Assembly: GCA_026387835.1 (NCBI GenBank)
Contig: JAPLKZ010000005.1
Span: forward strand, 249,596 to 281,595
Length of the DNA: 32,000 bases
Source: Candidatus Saganbacteria bacterium
Lineage (GTDB): Bacteria; Margulisbacteria; WOR-1; JAKLHX01
Reading direction: 5' to 3'
Below, in pieces: positions 2,011-25,588 of this stretch (positions are counted from its first letter, which is position 1; each line of letters starts with the position of its first letter). A program made the position numbers and the translations under genes. The notes under the pieces are model-generated. The model was not told the origin of the DNA and made no database searches. It saw only the letters and a program-made list of their open reading frames with translations.

Positions 2011-2078
2011 GTTTGAGTGTGAGTTTTGAGTGTTGAGTTTTTTACTCAAGACTAATTACTCAAACTTAGTACTTAAAT

Positions 2079-2165
2079 GGAGGGGTGGCCGAGTGGTTGA
2101 AGGCGCTCGCCTGGAAAGCGTGTTTACGTGAAAGCGTAACGTGGGTTCGAATCCCACCTCCTCCG
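2079..2165 (+). tRNA. tRNA-Ser (anticodon GGA)
   Basis: Hand-folded. Acceptor GGAGGGG/CTCCTCC (one G:U pair), anticodon loop CTGGAAA, long variable arm, T-arm GTGGG-TTCGAAT-CCCAC. There is one T:T mismatch in the anticodon stem. Confidence 0.85.
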
Positions 2166-3602
2166 ATGATTGAGATATTGAGCGTTTTTAAAAAGCGGCC
2201 GCCAGCCGATCCTAGAATCAAATTGTAATTTTTTGCCTTTCAAAATAAAGTTCGAGCCGATATTTTTTAGGAATGTAAGGATTTCTTCATAATTATTTGT
2301 GGCGATAAGATTTTTGGCTTGGCATCCGGATAAAATAATCTCTTTCATCGGTTCGAGCCAATTATTTCCCTTTTGTTCAAAATCCTTTATCTTTTGTTGT
2401 ATGTCCAGCTTTTCGTTTAATAGGGCATTCTTTTTTACCTGATATGTTTCCGGGTCTATGCCTTCCCCCTCTATGAACAGATCAAGCAGTTTATCCATTT
2501 TTACTGCAATATCAGATTTCTTTTGTTGCAGATTTTGAACAAAAGATTTTGTTTCTGCTTGAGCAAGCTCTTTTTCGTTATTGAGGTCTATCAGCATTTT
2601 CTTCACCCAGTCATCAGGGATTATCGTTTTGCTGATAGCATCTTTCATCTGATCGATTATGGATTCCTGGCGCGTATATTTCTCATCACACTTTTGCTTT
2701 TTCTTAGTGCAGCGATAATAGATATGGCCTTTTTGCTTTTCGGCGGTTATCATACAACCACAATTGCCGCATCGCATCAGTCCAGAAAAAGCAAATTCAT
2801 GTTTTCGTTTGCGCTTTTTCTTGCCTCTATTGGCCATTACTTGTTGAGCTTGCTCATATAGAGATTTGGAAATAATTGGCTCGTGAGTTCCTTCGTGCAT
2901 TTCTCCGTTATATCGGAATACTCCATAATAAAAAGGACTTTTTAACATGTGCTGGACACGGGCAGGAACGAGGATATATCCACGATAGCTTTTCATCCCG
3001 GCTCTTTCAAGGAATTGCTTTATTGAAAGCAATGTATAGTCACCGGTTGCATACAGCTCAAATGCCTTTCGTATTAGCGGAGCTTTTTCAGTATCAACTT
3101 CAATTCCTTTTGTCTTGTAATTGTTTAGATACCCCAATGGAGCAAATGCAGGCCAAATACCGTTACGCACTTTCTGCCGATGTCCTCGTTTTACATTCTC
3201 GCTTAGATTATCTATGTAATACTTGCTTTGGCCAAAGGCGATATTTAACATGAATTTTCCTTGAGGTGTAGAATCAAACCAGAAGGTCGGGAACTTGAGA
3301 TCTTTCAGCCTGCCCGTGTCCAGCAAGTAAATAATTTTGCCTCCATCTATTGAATTGCGTGCTAATCTGTCCGGATGCCAAGCCAAAACGCCACAAGCTT
3401 CACCTTTTTCAATCCGATCAAGCATTTCATTGAATATTTCTCTGCCGGGTTCTTTGGCAGTTTTTGCCTCGCAGAGCGAGGCGACGATTTCAAGTTTTTC
3501 TTTGGCGGCAAATTCTTTTAGCTCAACCAATTGTGCCTCAATGGATAATATCTGTCTTTCTTCCGAATCAGTTGATTTCCGGGCATAAAGGAAATACTTC
3601 AT
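2124..3602 (-). CDS. Large serine recombinase (resolvase/invertase catalytic domain + recombinase domain + zinc ribbon + coiled coil)
   Basis: N-terminus MKYFLYARKSTDSEERQ carries the catalytic Ser motif. DRLARN follows, then RCGNCGCMITAEKQKGHIYYRC (zinc ribbon). The ATG at 3602 is preceded by aaaggaggaggg, so the TTG at 3620 in the ORF track is likely spurious. The last 13 codons are antisense to tRNA-Ser(GGA). Confidence 0.9.
   Translation of the reverse strand: MKYFLYARKSTDSEERQILSIEAQLVELKEFAAKEKLEIVASLCEAKTAKEPGREIFNEMLDRIEKGEACGVLAWHPDRLARNSIDGGKIIYLLDTGRLKDLKFPTFWFDSTPQGKFMLNIAFGQSKYYIDNLSENVKRGHRQKVRNGIWPAFAPLGYLNNYKTKGIEVDTEKAPLIRKAFELYATGDYTLLSIKQFLERAGMKSYRGYILVPARVQHMLKSPFYYGVFRYNGEMHEGTHEPIISKSLYEQAQQVMANRGKKKRKRKHEFAFSGLMRCGNCGCMITAEKQKGHIYYRCTKKKQKCDEKYTRQESIIDQMKDAISKTIIPDDWVKKMLIDLNNEKELAQAETKSFVQNLQQKKSDIAVKMDKLLDLFIEGEGIDPETYQVKKNALLNEKLDIQQKIKDFEQKGNNWLEPMKEIILSGCQAKNLIATNNYEEILTFLKNIGSNFILKGKKLQFDSRIGWRPLFKNAQYLNHRRRWDSNPRYAFT
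2163..2239. repeat. IR-A left copy (imperfect inverted repeat flanking the recombinase gene)
   Basis: It is the reverse complement of 3693-3762. Identical blocks are ccgatgattgagat (14), gtttttaaaaagcggccgccagccgatcc (29), aaattg (6) and aattttttgcctt (13). The left copy has a 7-nt variable patch and a 7-nt indel. Confidence 0.85.
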
Positions 3603-3759
3603 AATCCCTCCTCCTTTCAATATAGATATCGGTCAAAAAGCCCGCTTTTGGCCAGCTTCATTTGGAGTATTTATTGCTCCAAATGGAGCTGTAAGGCAAA
3701 AAATTCCAATTTGGATCGGCTGGCGGCCGCTTTTTAAAAACGGCGGAAATCTCAATCAT
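2166..3759 (-). mobile_element. Putative minimal integrative element carrying only the serine recombinase, inserted at the 3' end of tRNA-Ser(GGA)
   Basis: Terminal inverted arms abut the tRNA discriminator base. Joining the inner arms gives the palindrome atctcaatc-AT-gattgagat. Joining the outer arms gives the quasi-palindrome ctccg-AT-cggga. Confidence 0.5.
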
Positions 3760-3762
3760 CGG
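3693..3762. repeat. IR-A right copy
   Basis: It is the reverse complement of 2163-2239 (see the left copy). It includes an inverted copy of the recombinase 3'-end sequence. Confidence 0.85.
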
Positions 3763-3870
3763 GAACTATATAAAAATATCAGAACCGAGATGACCGCCGA
3801 TCCTTAGGGCGGCGGTTGCCGCCGTCCAACCGCCGCCCCGTTCCCGCTGCTGGGCGACCTTTTCGGATTG
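3759..3870. repeat. IR-B left copy (112-bp inverted repeat)
   Basis: It is the reverse complement of 8433-8544, with 2 mismatches by manual alignment. It is GC-rich and contains an 11-bp-stem hairpin. Confidence 0.9.
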
Positions 3871-3936
3871 AAAAACTGCCAAAGAACCCAAAAATATCGG
3901 CTCAAACTTTATTTTGGCCAAAAGCGGGCTTTTTGA
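3871..3936 (+). pseudogene. Mosaic remnant of a second serine-recombinase locus
   Basis: 3871-3889 is identical to the reverse complement of 3447-3465 (codons KTAKEP). 3890-3916 matches the reverse complement of 2241-2267 at 26/27 (codons KNIGSNFIL). 3916-3936 is identical to the reverse complement of 3633-3653, the region upstream of the recombinase gene. Confidence 0.7.
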
Positions 3937-4014
3937 ATTCCGGATTGTCCCCGACCACCCACCCCTGAATAAATTGATAAATAACGCAATTATTGTTAGT
4001 ATTATATTGAAAGG

Positions 4015-4035
4015 TAGCATATCAATAATATGCTA
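4015..4035. promoter_or_regulatory. Palindromic candidate operator upstream of the HTH gene
   Basis: tagcatat-caata-atatgcta has perfect 8-bp arms and lies 17 nt before the HTH ATG. A possible promoter is ttgata (3975-3980), 17 nt, then tagtat. Confidence 0.4.
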
Positions 4036-4051
4036 TCAATTAAATGATATA

Positions 4052-4258
4052 ATGTCAATAAATAATAATATAGGAAAGAATATCAAACGTTTACGCACAA
4101 AATTAGGCTTCTCGCAAGAGACCTTGGCTGTAAAATCAGATGTAAAATACACGACTCTTACTAAGATTGAGAGTAATGTTATAAAGAAACCCTCAGTATT
4201 GCTAATGGCAAAAATCGCAAATATATTAAATGTTCAAATTGAGGAGCTAATAAAATAA
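4052..4258 (+). CDS. XRE-family helix-turn-helix protein (68 aa; C-protein/controller-like)
   Basis: IGKNIKRLRTKLGFSQETLAVKSDVKYTTLTKIESN is a canonical HTH_3 motif. I chose the internal Met of ORF 3914..4258, because the upstream part of that ORF lies in the recombinase-remnant sequence. Confidence 0.8.
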   Translation: MSINNNIGKNIKRLRTKLGFSQETLAVKSDVKYTTLTKIESNVIKKPSVLLMAKIANILNVQIEELIK

Positions 4259-4262
4259 CCAT

Positions 4263-4958
4263 ATGAAATATGAATTGGAAATTTATAATAGAAATGTGCC
4301 TGATGAGCATCTTCTTGATGATTTAAAAGCAGTTGCTAAGAAATTAGGCAGGTCTTCTGTGACTCATGAGGAATATAATAAAAATGGGAAGTATAATAGT
4401 ACAACTTATATGCGAAGATTTGGTGGTTGGTTTAAATCGTTAGAAATGGCAGGGCTCCAAAAAACAAGAACGCCAGCTAATGTTTCCGAAGATGACTTGT
4501 TTAACAATATTGAAGAGATTTGGATAAAACTCGGCAGACAACCACGATATCAAGAAGTTAGAACCCCATTATCAAAATATTGTGCAGGAACATACGAAAA
4601 CAGATTTGGAACATGGCGGAAGGCACTAGAAGCTTTCATAGATTATATTAATAAGGATCAAGATAAATGTTCAAATGAAATATCTCAAAAAGAGATAAAA
4701 TCCGGAGAGACTTCTAAATCTAATAAACACATAAAGATGACAAAAAGAGAAATATCGGATAGATTGCGTTTCCGGATATTATTAAGAGATGGTTTTACGT
4801 GCAGAAAATGTGGCCGCAGTCCGCTGAAGAATCCAGGAATCGAATTGCATGTTGATCATATCCTTCCTTGGTCCAAAGGTGGCGAGACAACGATTGAGAA
4901 TCTCGAGACGAAATGCGAAAAATGCAATCTGGGTAAAGGGAATGCATTTGATGTTTGA
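4263..4958 (+). CDS. HNH endonuclease with two N-terminal homing-endonuclease-associated repeats
   Basis: C-terminus HVDHILPWSKGGETTIENLETKCEKCNLGKGN is an HNH motif. Two repeats of the type L..LGR.....EY........STY.RRFG.W..AL occupy the N-terminal half. The start is 4 nt after the HTH stop. Confidence 0.85.
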   Translation: MKYELEIYNRNVPDEHLLDDLKAVAKKLGRSSVTHEEYNKNGKYNSTTYMRRFGGWFKSLEMAGLQKTRTPANVSEDDLFNNIEEIWIKLGRQPRYQEVRTPLSKYCAGTYENRFGTWRKALEAFIDYINKDQDKCSNEISQKEIKSGETSKSNKHIKMTKREISDRLRFRILLRDGFTCRKCGRSPLKNPGIELHVDHILPWSKGGETTIENLETKCEKCNLGKGNAFDV

Positions 4959-5012
4959 TTCTTATATAGAAATGGGTAATGTCTTAGAGCAGTTAATAAG
5001 GATTGTAATAAC

Positions 5013-5924
5013 ATGGCAAATATAACATGCAAAGCGAATAATCTAAGCGGGAAAAGATGCAAAAGGAATCCTCTGAAATCTGGGTTTTGTCCAACTCATG
5101 ACCCGGAAATATTAAATAAAAAAGAAGAACAGAAGAAGGCTGATGAAAAAAAGCGACAAAAAATAGATGAATTATTATCTATTGTCACAAAAACATGTAA
5201 GGCAAATGGTTGGGGCTGGGAAGTTGATGCATTTGATGATAATGATTTTTCTTCAGCCATTGTTAATGTTCATAAATATGTTTCAGGTCAAGACATTTCA
5301 GCATTGTTTCACATTAATATATCAAAAGACAATATTCAGTATAGGATTGAGAAAACATCATTTTACGGATACGGCGTTGAGGCATTAATGAGTTCAATAT
5401 CAAGTGCATTTGAAAGAAAAGGATTTGTTAGTCCAAAATCACTAGGAGGTGAACCAAATAAAAAGAATTCCTTATTAGATGTTTTGCCGATAATATTTGA
5501 ACGATTTCATGTTGTGGCAACGCAGCTGTCAAATCGTTATAATAAGAGACCTACATTGACAATTTCTGATGAATATGACGTACAGGATCTTTTACATGCT
5601 CTCCTTCGAGTTCATTTTACCGATGTTAGGCCAGAGGAGTATACTCCCAGTTATGCGGGATCATCTTCAAGAATAGATTTCCTTCTCAAAGATGAGAAGA
5701 CGCTTCTTGAGGTTAAATATGCAACAACTTCCTTAAAGGACAAAGCGATTGGAGAACAGTTAATAATAGATGTTGAGAAGTATAAAAGACACACCGATTG
5801 TGAAAACTTGTTTTGTTTCATATATAATCCAGGTTTTTCTATTAAGAATCCAAGCGGGCTAGAAAAAGATTTGTCAGGAAAAAATGGTAATATTAATGTT
5901 AAAGTATTCGTTTACCCAAAATAA
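5013..5924 (+). CDS. Predicted PD-(D/E)xK-like nuclease with an N-terminal Cys/His knuckle
   Basis: DEYDVQDLLHALL...RPEEYTPSYAGSSSRIDFLLKDEKTLLEVKY shows a D...E-x-K arrangement. The N-terminus is CKANNLSGKRCKRNPLKSGFCPTH. The family assignment is from memory of similar proteins and has not been searched. Confidence 0.5.
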   Translation: MANITCKANNLSGKRCKRNPLKSGFCPTHDPEILNKKEEQKKADEKKRQKIDELLSIVTKTCKANGWGWEVDAFDDNDFSSAIVNVHKYVSGQDISALFHINISKDNIQYRIEKTSFYGYGVEALMSSISSAFERKGFVSPKSLGGEPNKKNSLLDVLPIIFERFHVVATQLSNRYNKRPTLTISDEYDVQDLLHALLRVHFTDVRPEEYTPSYAGSSSRIDFLLKDEKTLLEVKYATTSLKDKAIGEQLIIDVEKYKRHTDCENLFCFIYNPGFSIKNPSGLEKDLSGKNGNINVKVFVYPK

Positions 5925-5932
5925 AATAGAAA

Positions 5933-5989
5933 CTAAAAGAATTTGCCGCCAAAGCTCTTGGCGTTTCAATAGAGGAGTTAATGAAATAG
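5933..5989 (+). repeat. Cassette-junction direct repeat C1 (recombinase-gene segment + HTH 3' tail remnant)
   Basis: 5933-5954 is identical to the reverse complement of 3500-3521. In frame it reads KLKEFAAKALGVSIEELMK followed by a stop, 1 nt before the ATG at 5991. Confidence 0.8.
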
Positions 5990-5990
5990 C

Positions 5991-6821
5991 ATGAAAAATA
6001 AAACACTCGCAATTTTCGGTATAGGAACGTATATCTTATCTGTCTTGTTGTCTGCTACAGATTCGGGAGGCAATTCTGTTGCGCCAATTACATTAATCTC
6101 AATATCGGGAATAGCAACCGCGGTATTTATCATTATGGCGATAGTCCGCCTCTGGAAGGAAGAAAAAGGCGCATCAATAACACTTGCATCTTCGGCTATT
6201 ATTCTTTTTATATTGTCAGTAGTTCAGGGTTTTGCCTCACCTTCGTACGGAAGTCCACTCATCATTATGTTAAACATAACCAAAGTATTTTATTTCATCG
6301 CATTTATTTGGACGATAATAGTACTTTATAGAAGTAAAGTAATTAATTCGCACATGATTACCAAAATAGATAATTATCACTTAAACCAACCCGTAAATGA
6401 AGCGCCGGATTTGAAGGAATACACAGCCGAAGAATATCAAATGTTTGAGATGGCTGGATATAAAAGGATATCTGAAAATGAAAAAATCTTTAGAGGCGGA
6501 ATTGTTAAATTCGCTTATATTCCGTGGGGCGAAACAACTATCGGAACTATAGATAATAAAATCTACAAAATATCGTTACAATTAATCACCCAAAACGAGA
6601 TCTTAGCAAAAGAAGTGTTTAAAACCACCCTCAATTACTTAATAGAACAAATGGACAAATATAGTGAACATCCATTTCTATCTAATAAATATATTTGGGA
6701 TGCACCTGAGGGGAATATCATTTATGAGCAAATAAATAGATTTAATCAGCATTGCATAAACATTTTTATTACTTCAAGCTCTATAAGAGATCAAGTGAAG
6801 AATTATATTTCAAAACACTAG
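5991..6821 (+). CDS. Hypothetical membrane protein (N-terminal multi-TM region + soluble C-terminal domain)
   Basis: 276-aa ORF. The first ~115 aa contain about 4 hydrophobic helices. No motif was recognised. Confidence 0.55.
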   Translation: MKNKTLAIFGIGTYILSVLLSATDSGGNSVAPITLISISGIATAVFIIMAIVRLWKEEKGASITLASSAIILFILSVVQGFASPSYGSPLIIMLNITKVFYFIAFIWTIIVLYRSKVINSHMITKIDNYHLNQPVNEAPDLKEYTAEEYQMFEMAGYKRISENEKIFRGGIVKFAYIPWGETTIGTIDNKIYKISLQLITQNEILAKEVFKTTLNYLIEQMDKYSEHPFLSNKYIWDAPEGNIIYEQINRFNQHCINIFITSSSIRDQVKNYISKH

Positions 6822-6832
6822 GGGGAAAATAT

Positions 6833-7360
6833 ATGATTATTAAAGTTATTGTTGAAATCATTTTAGGATTTATTTTGTTGGGAGTTAGTTCTGCTTTTTG
6901 GAATTGTGTTAAATCTCCGAAATTCTTAGCGAATGTGCTGGGTGATTATGACGAATTAAAAAGGTTTTTCCATCATCTAGGGAAAGAAAATATTAAACAC
7001 GAAAGTGAAGTTGTTGATCCGAAAATTGGATTTTCGGCAAATATCGTTTTATGGATTAAAGCGAGCCTATCGGCGCTGGACAAAACACGCAACATGTTGC
7101 TGGTTGTAATAATAGGAATCTTTATCGGAAGTTATTTTCTAGGAAATATTTTCCTCTTAATCAATGCTGTTTTATTCTTTATAATGGCTTTCCCAAGCAT
7201 TTCTGCTGCTGCTAAAAATAATATAATTACTGATATTCATACGATAATGCTTAATGTCTACAAATGGAACAAAGTAAATCATGCTGAATGTGAGAGGTTT
7301 TGTAACTTAGAGCAGCCAAGGATTATGAAAAATATTTATAGAGTAGTAACTGAAGAATAA
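6833..7360 (+). CDS. Hypothetical membrane protein
   Basis: I chose the internal ATG at 6833, which is preceded by ggggga. The track start at 6752 overlaps the previous gene. Hydrophobic helices occur at the N-terminus and mid-protein. Confidence 0.5.
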   Translation: MIIKVIVEIILGFILLGVSSAFWNCVKSPKFLANVLGDYDELKRFFHHLGKENIKHESEVVDPKIGFSANIVLWIKASLSALDKTRNMLLVVIIGIFIGSYFLGNIFLLINAVLFFIMAFPSISAAAKNNIITDIHTIMLNVYKWNKVNHAECERFCNLEQPRIMKNIYRVVTEE

Positions 7361-7413
7361 AAGGATTTGCCGCCAAAGCGTAGGGCGTTTCAATTGGAGA
7401 TTTAATAAAATAA
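7359..7413 (+). repeat. Cassette-junction direct repeat C2 (degenerate copy of C1)
   Basis: 44/55 identical to 5935-5989 by hand alignment. It reads KGFAAKA(stop)GVSIGDLIK(stop) and ends 4 nt before the ATG at 7418. Confidence 0.75.
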
Positions 7414-7417
7414 ATTT

Positions 7418-8401
7418 ATGTCATTATTTAAGAAAAAATTAACCGAGCAAGAAGCCGCCTCTCATTTTGTCCTTTATATTACAAAAGAGGCACAAAGTGC
7501 ATGGCCTGCCATTTATAAAAGTCTTCAAGATTCTTTTAAAGATAAATTTGTTGTAGAAGACGAAACAATGGCAGCATTTGATTTGGCTCTTGCCGCAATC
7601 GCCCAAGATTTACAGGCGGTAAATAATTTATTTCCAAAAGACCAAGCAGAAAGAATTGAAAAATGGGTTTTAAAATGCATTAATACTGAAGATTGGGGCG
7701 AATATGCGGTTGGCGAAGTGAAAAAATATGGGGAAAGATTTCAAAAGGATATTCAAAATATCAATGCCGGTGGCGATCCTTTGAGCGCCATCCCAACTCG
7801 CTTACTCCAGCAATGGCTAGGAAAAAATATTCAAGGCTTTGATGTAGAAATGAACGGAAAGAAAACCGGAATTATAAGCCCCTTTCTTCTTATGATGGTT
7901 TCCAGTATGCTTGCCGCCTTTCTTGGAACTTGGAAAAAACTAAAGGATGATTTTAATCTTGTTGAGGGCGACATACCTTTTGATGAAAAACCAAGTGGCT
8001 TGAAAGATTATGTACCCGAGCCGGATGAAAAAAAGCCTAACGGAACTATTCAATATTATGATGAAAACGGGAACCTAAAAGAGAAATGGTTGCCACCGGA
8101 ACAAATAAATGAACTTTTAAAGAAAGACGGCGCAAAGCGACTTTATAAAGTACTCGTTAAGGGACATTGGGACGGTGTTAAGGAAGCCCTTTGGGAACTT
8201 TCTGATGATACTGCTCAAAAATATGTTGATGAAAATGGTTATGCTTATGCAATTTGCACTTACGACACAGGAGAATTAAAATATTACTTTATTTCAAGAA
8301 GATTATGGGAGAAACAAGAGCAAATGGGAAAAATCTTGATGGATCAAAATTTATCACCGGAACAACAGCAAGAAGCAGTTAGAAAATTAATGGATGACTA
8401 A
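7418..8401 (+). CDS. Hypothetical protein (one central hydrophobic helix)
   Basis: 327-aa ORF with AT-rich codon usage like its neighbours. No motif was recognised. Confidence 0.5.
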   Translation: MSLFKKKLTEQEAASHFVLYITKEAQSAWPAIYKSLQDSFKDKFVVEDETMAAFDLALAAIAQDLQAVNNLFPKDQAERIEKWVLKCINTEDWGEYAVGEVKKYGERFQKDIQNINAGGDPLSAIPTRLLQQWLGKNIQGFDVEMNGKKTGIISPFLLMMVSSMLAAFLGTWKKLKDDFNLVEGDIPFDEKPSGLKDYVPEPDEKKPNGTIQYYDENGNLKEKWLPPEQINELLKKDGAKRLYKVLVKGHWDGVKEALWELSDDTAQKYVDENGYAYAICTYDTGELKYYFISRRLWEKQEQMGKILMDQNLSPEQQQEAVRKLMDD

Positions 8402-8432
8402 AATTTCCGCCAAAGAAAAACTTGAAATCGTC
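8402..8432 (+). repeat. Junction repeat C3 / recombinase 5' fragment abutting IR-B
   Basis: 8407-8432 is identical (26 bp) to the reverse complement of 3483-3508 (codons AKEKLEIV). Confidence 0.8.
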
Positions 8433-8544
8433 CAATCCGAAAAGGTCGCCCAGCAGCGGGAACGGGGCGGCGGTTGGATGGCGGCAACCGCCGCCCTAAG
8501 GATCGGCGGTCAGCTCGGTTCTGATATTTTTATATAGTTCCCGA
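8433..8544. repeat. IR-B right copy (112-bp inverted repeat)
   Basis: It is the reverse complement of 3759-3870 with 2 mismatches. The hairpin ggcggcggttg-gatggcgg-caaccgccgcc lies at 8466-8495. Confidence 0.9.
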
Positions 8545-8545
8545 A

Positions 8546-9694
8546 TTATTTCTTCCGCAGCACCCACATCATCTCTTTCACTCTTATATTCCTGTTCCTA
8601 AGGTTCCTTGACCCTCGGTAAGTATTATATTCGCTTGACATAAGCTTCCATTTTCCGTGTTTGGACAGGATGGACTTGAAAGTCTTAACGGGGATTATCC
8701 CTTCATCATTGTAAGAGATAACGATGAATTTAGCTCTGGTGTTTTTCAGAAGTTGGTCCATTGCCTCTTCGGCAAGATGCCTTTTGTTATAAACGGACTT
8801 GTTCCAATCCCGCGTGATCCCGCTGACGCCGTCCTGGATATAAAAGTTTTTATAGTCATTTATAAGGTTCAGCATGAAATAGTTTGACCCGTAAGGATGC
8901 TGGTTATAGGGCGGGTCAAGATAGACAAGATCGAACTCCGGAAGATTTGTGTCTTTAACAAGCCGATTAATATCTTTTTTTAGTACAACGACCTTACACT
9001 CGATATCAGAGAATACCGGCACTTCAAGGGTTATTTCCTTTTTTATCCTTGAGAGGGCATTCTCGCCTTTGCCTCCGAAATGGCCGATGCCGTTCTTCTT
9101 GTGGAACCCTTTGAAGACGCCGGAAGTGTTCGTGTGTATAGATGCTTCCACCAGAAGCGATGCAAGACAGAAGACGCGGTATTTTTCGGGAACGTCTTTG
9201 TCGATGAGTTTCCTAATATTATCGATGACCTGAGCGTTCTTGCTCGTATAAAAAACCCGCTCTCCGGATTTAATATCCATATCATCCTTTGGCGAATAAT
9301 TGAGGCTGATGAAACCTGGCTTATTTATGGATAATTTACGATCATTTAGAATGTCTATGTAATATTCAAGCTTTTTAACATTTATCTCTGATCTGTTTGC
9401 AAGATAACATCTGTTTAGCGTAAAACTGTAATTCTCAAGGTCATTGGCATACAGGACCTTTGCGTAATATTTCAAAAGCCTCGAAACTGAGCCGCTTCCC
9501 GCGAAACCGTCAAGGATAACAAGTTTTTCTTTGTTAAGTATTTTCTTAACTTTAGCAAACCCCTTATTAAGAAAGGAAAGGAGCGACCTTTTATTGCCGA
9601 GATAAGTTATCAGCTGAGAAGAAAAATATGGGGCATCTAAGTCAAGGTATTCCGGGGCATTGCCGGAAAATAAAGATCGTTGTATGTGTGCCAT
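8546..9694 (-). CDS. N6-adenine DNA methyltransferase, D12 (Dam-like, alpha) class
   Basis: YLGNKR is followed by the FAGSGS AdoMet motif, with DPPY (VYLDPPYN) about 200 aa downstream. This motif order is typical of alpha-class adenine methyltransferases. Confidence 0.8.
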   Translation of the reverse strand: MAHIQRSLFSGNAPEYLDLDAPYFSSQLITYLGNKRSLLSFLNKGFAKVKKILNKEKLVILDGFAGSGSVSRLLKYYAKVLYANDLENYSFTLNRCYLANRSEINVKKLEYYIDILNDRKLSINKPGFISLNYSPKDDMDIKSGERVFYTSKNAQVIDNIRKLIDKDVPEKYRVFCLASLLVEASIHTNTSGVFKGFHKKNGIGHFGGKGENALSRIKKEITLEVPVFSDIECKVVVLKKDINRLVKDTNLPEFDLVYLDPPYNQHPYGSNYFMLNLINDYKNFYIQDGVSGITRDWNKSVYNKRHLAEEAMDQLLKNTRAKFIVISYNDEGIIPVKTFKSILSKHGKWKLMSSEYNTYRGSRNLRNRNIRVKEMMWVLRKK

Positions 9695-22995: not shown

Positions 22996-24249
22996 ATGCA
23001 GACAACTAGGACTTCTTTTGCAGCAGCGTTAAGGACGAGCAGCAGGATCGATGTCGCCGCCAGGATAACTTCGGCAAGACTTTATTCACCTAATGGTGAT
23101 TATTGGAGATCCCGTGCCAGTATTCCGGGAGCTGTCCGTGCATTAAATGAAAAAATAATAGATAAGAAAATGGTCGCGGCTATATTTGCTGATGACAAAA
23201 TGCCCGTTGCCAGGGCTGCGGATATATTAGCTAGAGTAGAAATGGCTGCGGGAATTTTGGCTGATGTCAAAATGTCTATTAGCAGGGCTGCGGGTATATT
23301 AACTGATGACAAAATGCCTTTAGAGAAAGCTGCGGGTATATTAACTGATGACAAAATGCCTTTAGAGAAAGCTGCGGGTATATTAGCTGATGACGGTATA
23401 TTAACTGATGACAAAATGCCTTTAGAGAAAGCTGCGGGTATATTAGCTGATGACAAAATAGATTTAATGAAAGTTGCGGCTATATTTGCTGATGACAAAA
23501 TGCCCGTTGCCAGGGCTGCAGGAATATTTGCTGATGGCAAAATGCCTGTTGCCAGGGTTGCGGGAATATTAGCTTATCTCAAAATACCTGCAAGCAGGGC
23601 TGCGGGTATATTAGCTGATGACAAAATGCCTGCTAGCAGGGCTGCGGGAATATTAGCGCATGATCTTATTAATCCTTGGAGGGCTGCGGGTATATTAACT
23701 GATGACAAAATGCCTGTTGCCAGGGTTGCAGGAATATTAGCTGATTACAAAATGCCTGTTGCCAGGGCTGCGGATATATTAGCTGATGACAAAATATCTT
23801 TAGAGAAGGCTGCGGGTATATTAGCTGATGATAAAATGAGTCTTTGCAGGGCTGCGGATATATTAGCTGATTACAAAATGCCTGTTGCCAGGGCTGCGGA
23901 TATATTAGCTGATGACAAAATATCTTTAGAGAAGGCTGCGGGTATATTAGCGCATGATCTTATTAATCTTTGGAAGGCTGCGGGGATATTGGCTGACGGG
24001 AAAATGCCTTTAGATAGGGCCGTGAGAATATTAGCATGTGATCTTATTAATGTTCAGAAAGCTGCGGGTATATTAGGTGGCGGCATAATGCCTATTACCA
24101 GGGCCGCGGATATATTAGCCGATGAAAAAATCTCTTTAGATAAGGTTGCAGGCATAATCGGGGAAATGCCGGACGTAAACGCAATTTACATCTTAGCTGA
24201 AATGGGAGACGAACTCGTAAGACGAATTATTGAGAAGATAGGAAAATAA
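22996..24249 (+). CDS. 14-residue tandem-repeat protein A (about 25 repeats; MgtE_N/FliG-like helical C-terminus)
   Basis: Consensus unit AAGILADDKMPxxR, encoded by 42-bp DNA repeats. RBS agggag. The N-terminal ~50 aa and the C-terminal ~35 aa are homologous to the next gene. Confidence 0.7.
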   Translation: MQTTRTSFAAALRTSSRIDVAARITSARLYSPNGDYWRSRASIPGAVRALNEKIIDKKMVAAIFADDKMPVARAADILARVEMAAGILADVKMSISRAAGILTDDKMPLEKAAGILTDDKMPLEKAAGILADDGILTDDKMPLEKAAGILADDKIDLMKVAAIFADDKMPVARAAGIFADGKMPVARVAGILAYLKIPASRAAGILADDKMPASRAAGILAHDLINPWRAAGILTDDKMPVARVAGILADYKMPVARAADILADDKISLEKAAGILADDKMSLCRAADILADYKMPVARAADILADDKISLEKAAGILAHDLINLWKAAGILADGKMPLDRAVRILACDLINVQKAAGILGGGIMPITRAADILADEKISLDKVAGIIGEMPDVNAIYILAEMGDELVRRIIEKIGK

Positions 24250-24250
24250 A

Positions 24251-25588
24251 ATGCAGACAGCAAGACCTTTTTTTGCGGCGGCGGTAAAAACAAGCAGGGC
24301 CGATATTACAACAAGGATAGCTTCAGCAAGACTAACATCCCCAGGTAATTACTGGAGGTCCCGTGCCAGTATCCCTGAAGCGGTCCTCGTGCTCGGCAAT
24401 GAAAAGACGGATTTAGGAACGGTCGTGCGCATATTCGCCGATTACAAAATGCCTGTCGGCAGGGCTGCGGGAATGCTGGCCGGAATGCACAGGGCTGCTG
24501 AAATATTAGCTGACACAGGAATGCCTGCGCTCAGGTCTGCGGAAATATTAAAATGTTTTACTTTTGATGCCGGCACGGCTTCGTGGATATTTGCCGATAA
24601 AAAAATGTCTATAAGCAGAGCTGCGGCTATATTGGCTGAAAGGACGATAACTTCAGATAAGGCCGCAGAAATACTTGCTGATGGAAGAATGCCTTTAGAT
24701 AAAGTTGCGGGAATATTTGCCGATATCAATATGACCGGAAGCCGGGCCGCAATTATTCTGGCAGATGAAAAAATGCCCCCAGTCCGGGTTGCGAGGATAT
24801 TAGCGCACGATCTTATTGAGCCCAGGAAGGCCGCTGATATATTATCTGAAAATACAATAGGAATAGTAAAAATTGAGGCAATATTTGCCGATGAAAGCCT
24901 GCCTTTAGAGAAAGCTGCAGTCATTTTAAATGATGACAGGTTGACTGTAGAGAAAGTCGCTGCGACTTTAAATAACGGCAAAATGCCTCTCAGCAGGGCC
25001 GCGGGTATTTTAAATGACGGCAAAATGACCGTTGCCAGAGCGGTTTCAATAGTAGTACATAACAATATGGATGAGAGAAGAATCGAGACAATATTTGCTG
25101 ATGACAGAATGCTGCCGGACAGGGCCGCTGCAATATTGGCTGATGAAAAAACAACCGCTCATAAGGTCATGAGAATATTAGCCTTTGAAAAAATGCCTGC
25201 AAGCAGGGCCGCGGCAATATTAACTGATGACATAATGTTCCCGTGCAGGGCTGCAGCAGTATTTGCCGATGAAAAAATGCCGGCCCGCAGGGTTTTGAAT
25301 ATACTGGCTGATGACAAGGTCTCAGTAAGTAGGGCTGCGGCAATATTGGCTGATGAAAAGATGCTTGCAAGCAGAATCGCGGATATATTTGCGCAAGTAA
25401 TCAATATCGACTATCAAACTGCCAGCCCGCTCAGGGTCACTTATGACAAAACAATGCCTTTAGAAAAGGCCGCGGCGATAATCGGGGCAATGCAGGACGA
25501 AAGAGCCGTCAAAATATTAGCTGAACTGGCAAACGACGTCGTAAAAATGTTCATTGACGAGATGGAAAAAAAGGAAGAGCAAAAATAA
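24251..25588 (+). CDS. 14-residue tandem-repeat protein B (diverged paralog of A)
   Basis: The start is 1 nt after the stop of A. It has the same N-terminus (MQTARPFFAAAVKTSRADITTRIASARLTSPGNYWRSRASIPEAV) and the same repeat type, but the repeats are more diverged. Confidence 0.7.
   Translation: MQTARPFFAAAVKTSRADITTRIASARLTSPGNYWRSRASIPEAVLVLGNEKTDLGTVVRIFADYKMPVGRAAGMLAGMHRAAEILADTGMPALRSAEILKCFTFDAGTASWIFADKKMSISRAAAILAERTITSDKAAEILADGRMPLDKVAGIFADINMTGSRAAIILADEKMPPVRVARILAHDLIEPRKAADILSENTIGIVKIEAIFADESLPLEKAAVILNDDRLTVEKVAATLNNGKMPLSRAAGILNDGKMTVARAVSIVVHNNMDERRIETIFADDRMLPDRAAAILADEKTTAHKVMRILAFEKMPASRAAAILTDDIMFPCRAAAVFADEKMPARRVLNILADDKVSVSRAAAILADEKMLASRIADIFAQVINIDYQTASPLRVTYDKTMPLEKAAAIIGAMQDERAVKILAELANDVVKMFIDEMEKKEEQK

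Follow-up and report, generated by a model that had tools for sequence, protein, structure and literature searches.

Inverted repeats beside a large serine recombinase gene as probable duplicated attachment-site arms of a tRNA-Ser island

Gene content and inverted repeats of the locus

We analyzed a stretch of 32,000 nucleotides from a Candidatus Saganbacteria bacterium (assembly GCA_026387835.1, contig JAPLKZ010000005.1, positions 249,596 to 281,595), hereafter called the window, in which two 112-nt inverted repeats bracket a 4.6-kb gene block next to a gene for a large serine recombinase (LSR). The recombinase gene itself reaches into a gene for tRNA-Ser(GGA). We consider it probable that the repeats are two copies of one arm of the attachment site attP, carried by a 6.4-kb LSR island that sits in the 3′ end of this tRNA gene. 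Judged by sequence comparison, the island belongs to a family that is spread across phyla and whose members insert at the very 3′ end of tRNA-Ser genes.

The tRNA-Ser(GGA) gene (2078-2166, plus strand) was found by both ARAGORN and Rfam. The LSR gene (2124-3602, minus strand) encodes a protein of 492 amino acids with the Pfam domains Resolvase, Recombinase and Zn_ribbon_recom (E = 2e-19, 6e-17 and 1e-9), whose C-terminal domains match the structure of the A118 integrase (4kis); the NCBIfam equivalogs XisF and CcrA/B/C all remained below their cut-offs. The protein is 100% identical to one from a metagenome-assembled genome (MAG) of Candidatus Saganbacteria, and relatives at 60-75% identity are annotated from Nitrospira, Brocadia, Thermodesulfovibrionales and several Patescibacteria.

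The two 112-nt arms, which we call B units, are located at 3759-3870 and 8433-8544, with 4562 nt between them. They are 98% complementary according to a repeat finder, stand out in a self-BLAST of the window (E = 6e-54) and agree at 110 of 112 positions in a global alignment, the mismatches lying at 3790 and 3824. Their GC content is 0.60, compared with 0.34 in the enclosed block, and the right arm contains the hairpin ggcggcggttg-N8-caaccgccgcc at 8466-8495. The left arm adjoins the upstream region of the recombinase gene, and the right arm ends at 8544, with the stop codon of a methyltransferase gene starting at 8546. A preliminary description of this DNA had already reported near-perfect 112-bp repeats, GC-rich copies with an 11-bp-stem hairpin, a left copy starting where the recombinase element ends and a right copy 1-2 nt from the methyltransferase stop, and had tied the repeats to the serine recombinase and to a bracketed gene block. 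All of this agrees with our analysis, in which the block is mobile cargo.

That description missed that the B pair is only the largest of six nested inverted pairs centered on the recombinase gene. The P pair (2163-2240 and 3692-3762) is identical at 66 of 79 positions and the T pair (3633-3654 and 3915-3936) at all 22. The remaining three consist of pieces of the recombinase coding sequence: the C pair (2241-2267 and 3890-3916, 26/27 identical, codons KNIGSNFIL), the K pair (3447-3465 and 3871-3889, 19/19, codons KTAKEP) and the A pair (3483-3514 and 8401-8432, 32 nt at 94%, codons EFAAKEKLEIV). The inner ends of both B arms are joined to fragments of recombinase codons 34-52, and in its topology the bracketed block resembles a circle that was opened within a recombinase gene.

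Within the resident gene, A and K belong to a block of ~75 nt (A-pal-K, 3447-3521, minus strand, codons ~28-52), with the 17-nt palindrome pal (GCCTCGCTCTGCGAGGC, 3466-3482) between them. Across related loci this block is nearly invariant at the nucleotide level while the proteins differ by ~30%, and the loop of pal alone varies, which suggests a cis-acting site inside the recombinase gene. Fragments of the same block flank both B arms.

A role of the B unit as a structured RNA was considered and rejected. When 24 B units were folded to a consensus, the GC hairpin was kept, but covariation was almost nil (-0.61 kcal/mol), and Rfam revealed no RNA family in or near the repeat, neither in a gathering scan of the window nor in a permissive scan of 3400-4300. 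The folding and covariance analysis suggested in the preliminary description therefore confirmed a conserved hairpin and lent no support to a structured RNA. An RNA duplex between the leader, with rc(K), rc(C) and P (rc, reverse complement), and the recombinase reading frame was also set aside, as the pairings would cross.

Attachment-site signature of the arms

The T-arm and acceptor 3′ strand of tRNA-Ser(GGA) carry the T-loop box GGTTCGAAT at 2144-2152, and a crossover at the CC of 2163-2164 can be inferred. The B units carry the box GGTTCTGAT, in the left arm on the minus strand at 3786-3778 with the crossover CC assigned to 3761-3762, and in the right arm on the plus strand at 8517-8525 with the crossover CC at 8541-8542. 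The spacer between box and CC is 10 nt in the tRNA and 15 nt in both B copies. The same shift is seen in the family: from the start of GTTCGAA to the shared core there are 18 nt in the tRNA and 23 nt in the B unit, a difference of +5 in 27 of the 28 measurable loci. According to Rutherford et al. (PMC3783163), attP half-sites have the motif of the LSR zinc-ribbon domain at positions 16-24, and attB half-sites have it at 11-19. With the crossover at the first CC of CCGCCA, the observed spacers fit these positions, so we assign the tRNA arm to the attB type and the B unit to the attP type. The counterpart of the CCGCCA core in the window is “cc-ga”. The +5 shift is seen in left arms only. The box pattern occurs four times in the 32 kb, in two tRNA-Ser genes and the two B copies. 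One of these tRNA genes is a second, unoccupied tRNA-Ser (CGA) at 1247-1336, with the same T-loop box at 1314-1322; a flavodoxin gene and a small membrane open reading frame (ORF) lie between the two tRNA genes (1357-2010), and a flavodoxin is also found as cargo in the related locus L007.

Based on these sequence features, we assign B'/P (the slash marks a junction) to attP, tRNA/P (2163/2165) to attL and B'/host (8542/8543) to attR, giving an element of 6378 bp from ~2165 to 8542. The terminal P arm (2165-2239) is the right arm of attL and 66/79 identical to rc(3692-3762). The final bases of the tRNA come from this arm, which in antisense also codes for the C-terminal tail of the recombinase; the recombinase ORF runs through it into the antisense tRNA. 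At the other end, the terminal B unit (8433-8544, plus strand) is the left arm of attR; the “ga” at 8543-8544 and the 3′ end of the methyltransferase gene are assigned as the displaced native tRNA end and trailer, and the empty site of the host would read ..cccacctcct-cc-ga-attatttcttcc. Host trailers from different loci show no relatedness. The active ends of the B arms are the outer ones (tcggg...), which bear the motif and the host junctions, and not the cggattg ends.

A second, complete B'/P site is found inside the element. It consists of an internal P arm (3693-3758, in rc orientation) and the left B unit (3759-3870, plus strand), an attP-type member of the conserved unit family. Its layout is identical to the site upstream of the recombinase gene in every canonical locus. 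On one side it meets the recombinase leader (3633-3692, minus strand), which is terminator-like and consists of the T hairpin (3633-3654, 22/22 identical to rc(3915-3936)) and the palindrome hp (3655-3692), hp and T having the same order in all loci compared. On the other side follow the inverted recombinase-gene fragments K (3871-3889), C (3890-3916) and T (3915-3936) on the plus strand, which match the resident gene at 19/19, 26/27 and 22/22 positions; the K/C junction beside the internal B unit is the same in all canonical loci. Three terminator-like hairpins lie between the internal site and the start of the recombinase gene.

Related loci share one layout

For comparison we used 80 metagenomic loci and several contigs from protein look-ups, all oriented on the recombinase gene; one metagenome scan yielded more than 579 relatives. 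In about 50 loci the recombinase gene is flanked by an inverted P/rc-P pair of 78-112 nt, mostly 98-100% identical, which runs ~5-6 nt into the antisense 3′ end of a tRNA gene for one of four Ser isoacceptors or, in diverged branches, for Trp or Asp. The tRNA-Trp loci are L084, L087 and L092, and L086 is at tRNA-Asp. In L084 the box of the B unit is changed to match (TCGTAAT), with the spacing of roughly +5 kept. In most of 120 homologues, the reading frame of the recombinase tail continues through rcP into antisense tRNA sequence (..NWRRGWDSNPR).

The 125-160 nt upstream of the P pair form a conserved unit of rc(K), a GC-rich hairpin, the T-arm-like GTTCGAAttttTTCGAAC and ..ACA-CCGCCA. A second copy of the B unit is inverted in 31 of the 31 loci in which it is detectable, 0.7-6.1 kb away and 88-100% identical to the first (at least 93% in all but two); the loci lacking a detectable second copy had less than ~1.3 kb of upstream sequence. 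Compared between elements, the B unit is conserved at ~67% per column. The far copy is always followed by rc(A) and always preceded by tggcgg and unrelated host DNA, often with a terminator hairpin. Next to it, rc(r2)-rc(r1), the two parts of A, are present in every locus compared; many far ends (L002 4572-4610; L014-L054) carry an insert of 35-45 nt with two small hairpins exactly between r2 and r1.

The locus L002 contains a B unit 99% identical to that of the window; here the neighbor is not the methyltransferase gene but a gene for a macB-type permease, whose stop codon the unit adjoins. Because a nearly identical unit thus adjoins a different host gene, we interpret the right arm as the terminus of the element. 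More generally, element ends adjoin different host DNA in different loci, as expected for an LSR element. A search of viral contigs retrieved only one distant relative (46%), which argues against a phage.

The doubled layout is found in more than 90% of the loci across phyla, and single-copy derivatives (L007-10) are rare. Since related loci share it, the layout of the window represents the canonical architecture of a family and not an accident or artefact. The preliminary description had called the architecture unusual for a large serine recombinase locus. This holds in comparison with textbook LSR loci but not within the family.

Junctions, isomers and tandem arrays

Several contigs carry junctions that bear on the mobility of the family. 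L094 contains a recombinase-rcP/B-rc(A) junction, as expected of either an excised circle or a tandem of the same type, which are indistinguishable there. Many contigs have the far B unit at one end and the tRNA at the other, with exact limits, a pattern to be expected if the unit is repeated and mobile. Tandem arrays with hybrid B2'/P1 junctions were found in L033, L060, L066, L075, L096 and L097; in these arrays, the family is stacked with a second LSR family (~50% identity, or a 577-amino-acid enzyme) at a single tRNA-Ser gene. The hybrid junctions indicate that a tRNA arm combined with a foreign right arm is still used as a target. Across the different junctions, the recombinase ORF continues into antisense tRNA, the B unit, or T/XRE.

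All of the more than 30 complete canonical loci, including the window, show one orientation. L071 instead has an intact flipped arrangement, recombinase-C-rcP/B-K-C-T-XRE, all on one strand. In addition, two classes of loci appear to derive from flips. L007-10 have a single B' and a single P (tRNA/P-hp-T-rec-T-XRE-cargo-A-B'/host), the product expected if the recombinase arc flipped and the sequence between the C copies, made direct by the flip, was then deleted. In L065/68, L070 and L079, cargo-r1-r2-pal-K... is joined to a recombinase gene lacking its first ~27 codons, the product expected of a flip of the cargo arc followed by deletion between A copies made direct. Based on L071 and these two classes, both arcs appear to have been inverted in the history of the family. 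Antiparallel or second-site LSR crossovers were rejected as the origin of the repeats, because the predicted junctions (tRNA/B, rcP/P) were not observed.

Regulator, cargo and flanking genes

The internal site is followed by a gene for an XRE-family regulator with a helix-turn-helix domain (4052-4258, plus strand, Pfam HTH_3). It diverges from the recombinase gene and is one of the core genes of the family. A tblastn search located it in 58 loci, always on the opposite strand, ~130-150 nt past rc(K) and in divergent orientation to the recombinase gene. In the window, a promoter-like site for this gene is located at 3974-4002, and a leftward TTGACA-17-TAGCAT site at 4058-4030.

Pfam and PADLOC were used to characterize the variable region at 4263-8401 (plus strand). 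It encodes an HNH endonuclease (4263-4958), a protein with a DpnII/MboI-type restriction endonuclease domain (5013-5924), membrane proteins (5991-6821 and 6752-7360) and a 327-amino-acid protein of unknown function (7418-8401), all on the plus strand. Apart from the HNH gene and one membrane protein gene, each present in two other loci, these genes are absent from the other loci, and we therefore regard them as cargo and not as core genes. The region ends in the A fragment (8401-8432, plus strand), the r2 part of which is identical at 26/26 positions and which adjoins the right arm. A module junction is located at 5933-5988 (plus strand) and a second copy at 7358-7412, each of 55 nt. In both, 22 nt that encode LKEFAAK of the recombinase (r1, identical to rc 3500-3521) are fused to an XRE gene 3′ end reading ..ALGVSIEELMK*. 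Such junctions are unique to the window among ~90 loci, and the block appears to have arisen from three cargo modules, brought together when sequence between stacked elements was deleted. An integron-like cassette array was rejected, as the junctions occur only here and there are no attC-like sites.

Beyond the right end, a type II D12-class DNA methyltransferase gene (8546-9694, minus strand; Pfam; PADLOC MTase_II at 6.5e-111) lies outside the element and forms the right flank of attB. In the other loci compared, no D12 methyltransferase gene was found next to the far arm. The DpnII/MboI-type protein is thus encoded inside the element, and the D12 methyltransferase just past the attachment boundary on the opposite strand. 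The methyltransferase region has a GC content of 0.41 compared with 0.476 for the host and may belong to an older island. Farther downstream, a 42-nt (14-residue) tandem repeat forms long arrays at 23159-24140, within the adjacent ORFs 22996-24249 and 24251-25588.

Discussion

We propose the following explanation for the repeats, based on the element boundaries, the conserved duplication, the attP/attB-type spacing, the circle-or-tandem junction and the flipped isomers. The attP region of the family would comprise ~180-200 nt, in which the B unit mimics the T-arm/acceptor end of the tRNA, and the P arm restores the end of the tRNA and contributes the coding sequence for the recombinase tail. 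The element would hold two inverted copies of this region. The copy used for integration would now be split, with P at the tRNA (attL, 2165-2239) and B at the far end (attR, 8433-8544), and the other would have stayed intact, inverted, at 3693-3870 between the recombinase gene and the divergent XRE gene. The 112-bp repeat would then consist of two B halves, one from the split copy and one from the intact copy. Between them, the copies would divide the element into a recombinase arc (2165-3758) and a cargo arc (3871-8432), the latter being the bracketed block.

The recombinase presumably reads chiefly the motif-bearing, tRNA-like arm. If only this arm is read specifically, attL would stay target-like and attR donor-like, and integration may be reversible without a directionality factor. 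Each arc could then invert, the recombinase arc between the tRNA/P site and the internal B'/P site. The observed isomer would predominate because it is the sole one in which all six repeat pairs are inverted, so that no deletion follows. The intact internal copy is most likely a partner site or an operator controlling the recombinase gene; by analogy to res in Tn3, its layout would also suit an autoregulatory operator. Integration through this second copy was not observed among the loci.

A stronger version of this explanation regards the doubled inverted attP as a working device, in which the tRNA-like arm alone is read, integration is reversible, resident elements remain targets for newcomers, and the recombinase flips its own gene between the tRNA/P site and the internal B'/P site. 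In one orientation convergent transcription of the tRNA would silence the gene, and in the other tRNA transcription would drive it, which would make a self-contained on/off switch for mobility. We regard this extension as unlikely at present.

A number of observations weigh against the proposed explanation. Canonical LSR sites are quasi-palindromic, but in the right arms (P and the host trailers) we found no T-loop box in inverted orientation. Pfam and the family comparison revealed no recombination directionality factor among the core genes. The P arms of the window are 84% identical compared with 98-100% elsewhere, and this copy may be old or inactive. The evidence for activity comes from the family, and a search with the neighboring flavodoxin gene for an unoccupied attB in a close relative was negative (best non-self match 59%, on a 1.2-kb contig). 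Both the recognition of a single arm and the purpose of the duplicated attP, which may be a switch for the recombinase gene or a regulatory site, are inferred. Finally, the explanation does not account for the near-identity of the two attP copies within an element in the face of their divergence between elements, or for the exact recombinase-codon fragments (K, C and A) flanking the arms.

Alternatively, the doubled attP region and the recombinase-gene fragments could go back to an ancient event in which one element inserted, nested or in tandem, into the recombinase gene of another; gene conversion would have kept the relics alike, and they would have no present function. Here, the B arms would be joined to A, K, C and T fragments of a second, nearly deleted and circularly permuted recombinase gene; the same K/C deletion junction in all loci implies a single ancestral event, and tandem and nested arrays are common in the family. 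Yet the layout is kept in more than 90% of the loci across phyla although simpler single-copy derivatives arise and stay rare, and the intact copy always lies precisely between the divergent regulator and recombinase genes. Moreover, fragments of 19-28 nt that remain exact copies of the resident gene are hard to explain by gene conversion alone. We therefore consider such a frozen accident unlikely. Even less likely is a phase-variable cargo, in which inversion of the 4.6-kb block by the recombinase, between the 112-bp arms, would switch the expression of cargo or regulator genes, with both orientations present in the population. The near-perfect repeat next to a serine recombinase had led the preliminary description to suggest an invertible segment, and at the family level there is weak support for it: L065/68/70/79 can be explained by a flip of the cargo arc with subsequent deletion between direct A repeats, L007-10 likewise by a flip, and L071 shows the flipped relative orientation of the two arcs. 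However, the more than 30 complete loci, which come from independent assemblies, all have the same orientation, and flipped forms, which create direct repeats, are found mostly as deleted derivatives. Both arms are also of the attP type and point outward, a pairing not normally recombined by LSRs (PMC3783163), and the promoter-like site of the XRE gene inside the block would flip along, leaving no obvious promoter-gene link changed.

The preliminary description had offered, as a second reading, a foldback- or MITE-like (miniature inverted-repeat transposable element) palindrome of 224 bp downstream of the tRNA, split at its center (cggattg/caatccg) by insertion of the gene block. A B unit and a B' unit in succession would indeed form a perfect palindrome, and the inner ends carry halves of a contiguous recombinase sequence A...K, as integration of a circle at the center would give. 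But none of the ~30 loci with both arms contains an uninterrupted palindrome; the shortest block measures 727 nt and always includes the XRE gene. The functional motif and the host junctions are at the outer ends of the arms. Nor is the unit dispersed: a hairpin-pattern scan of 185,579 genomes, in line with the copy search suggested earlier, returned six matches, five of them chance GC palindromes and one the true unit of L002, in addition to the two copies in the window. We consider this origin very improbable and reject a MITE or foldback element as well as a chance palindrome. The chance of an assembly artefact, which the preliminary description had named as a possible refutation, is practically negligible. 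The window does come from a MAG, and many related contigs break at the repeats, but dozens of contigs from different projects and assemblers show the same layout with element-specific sequence in both copies.

The literature that we searched in full text contains no account of LSR elements that sit at tRNA-Ser ends and carry their attachment region in two inverted copies, and this widespread island family is apparently undescribed. Boundaries, attachment sites and core genes are now defined for a small and very widespread family of LSR islands. The 5-bp shift between attP and attB is replicated in ~30 independent elements, and the family thus offers a natural experiment on the half-site rule. 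Our data point to a recombinase for which a single specific arm may suffice, one derived from a universally conserved part of tRNA. If true, such half-site logic has not been described for LSRs and would bear on their directionality and on integrases for genome engineering; the enzyme would be a natural broad-host integrase reading a near-universal T-arm/acceptor sequence across phyla. The concerted evolution of two inverted 200-nt attachment regions and the exact recombinase-gene fragments flanking them are puzzles raised by these elements.

Comparison with known systems

The island shares features with several recombination systems. Like the A118/LI, Bxb1 and phiC31 integrases, its enzyme has the Resolvase, Recombinase and zinc-ribbon architecture, donor and target sites share a motif located 5 bp further from the crossover in the donor, and integration gives hybrid junctions. 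In contrast to these phage LSRs, the family, with hosts in many phyla, targets tRNA genes at their 3′ end (those for Ser or, in diverged branches, for Trp or Asp), has one motif-bearing arm per site, keeps a second intact inverted attP copy and reuses hybrid sites in tandem arrays; no directionality factor was seen among the core genes, and the element is not a phage. A transposon with terminal inverted repeats, including LSR elements of the Tn4451/Tn5397 type, was rejected, since the recombinase gene lies outside the 112-bp repeats and the element ends are unrelated P and B arms.

In hin, a serine recombinase gene is located inside a segment bounded by inverted sites, and res of Tn3/gamma-delta is a recombination site between divergent genes and a possible operator; both arrangements would have a counterpart in the island. 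It differs from Hin/Gin/Cin and res in that the enzyme is an LSR, the repeats measure ~100-200 nt instead of 26 bp, and one orientation dominates.

The intP integrase of the Myxococcus phage Mx8 and the archaeal integrases of the SSV type also have an attP that overlaps their own gene, as the P arm of the island encodes the C-terminal tail of the recombinase. Those are tyrosine recombinases, however, and in the island integration leaves the catalytic part of the gene in one piece. Tycheposons, as well as NBU2 and mv4 (both at tRNA-Ser), resemble the family as small islands at tRNA ends with variable, often defence-type cargo, and the stacking of successive elements at one site recalls the tandem accretion of SCC elements. 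These systems mainly use tyrosine recombinases, or Ccr at rlmH, and none has been described with two inverted copies of the attachment region; for tycheposons, a few LSR-bearing islands at tRNA genes but no duplicated inverted layout were reported (bioRxiv 10.1101/2020.12.28.424599). An SCC-type (Ccr) element was rejected in view of Ccr model scores of 45-83 bits against cut-offs of 700-900, a tRNA as target and a D12 DNA methyltransferase as neighbor.

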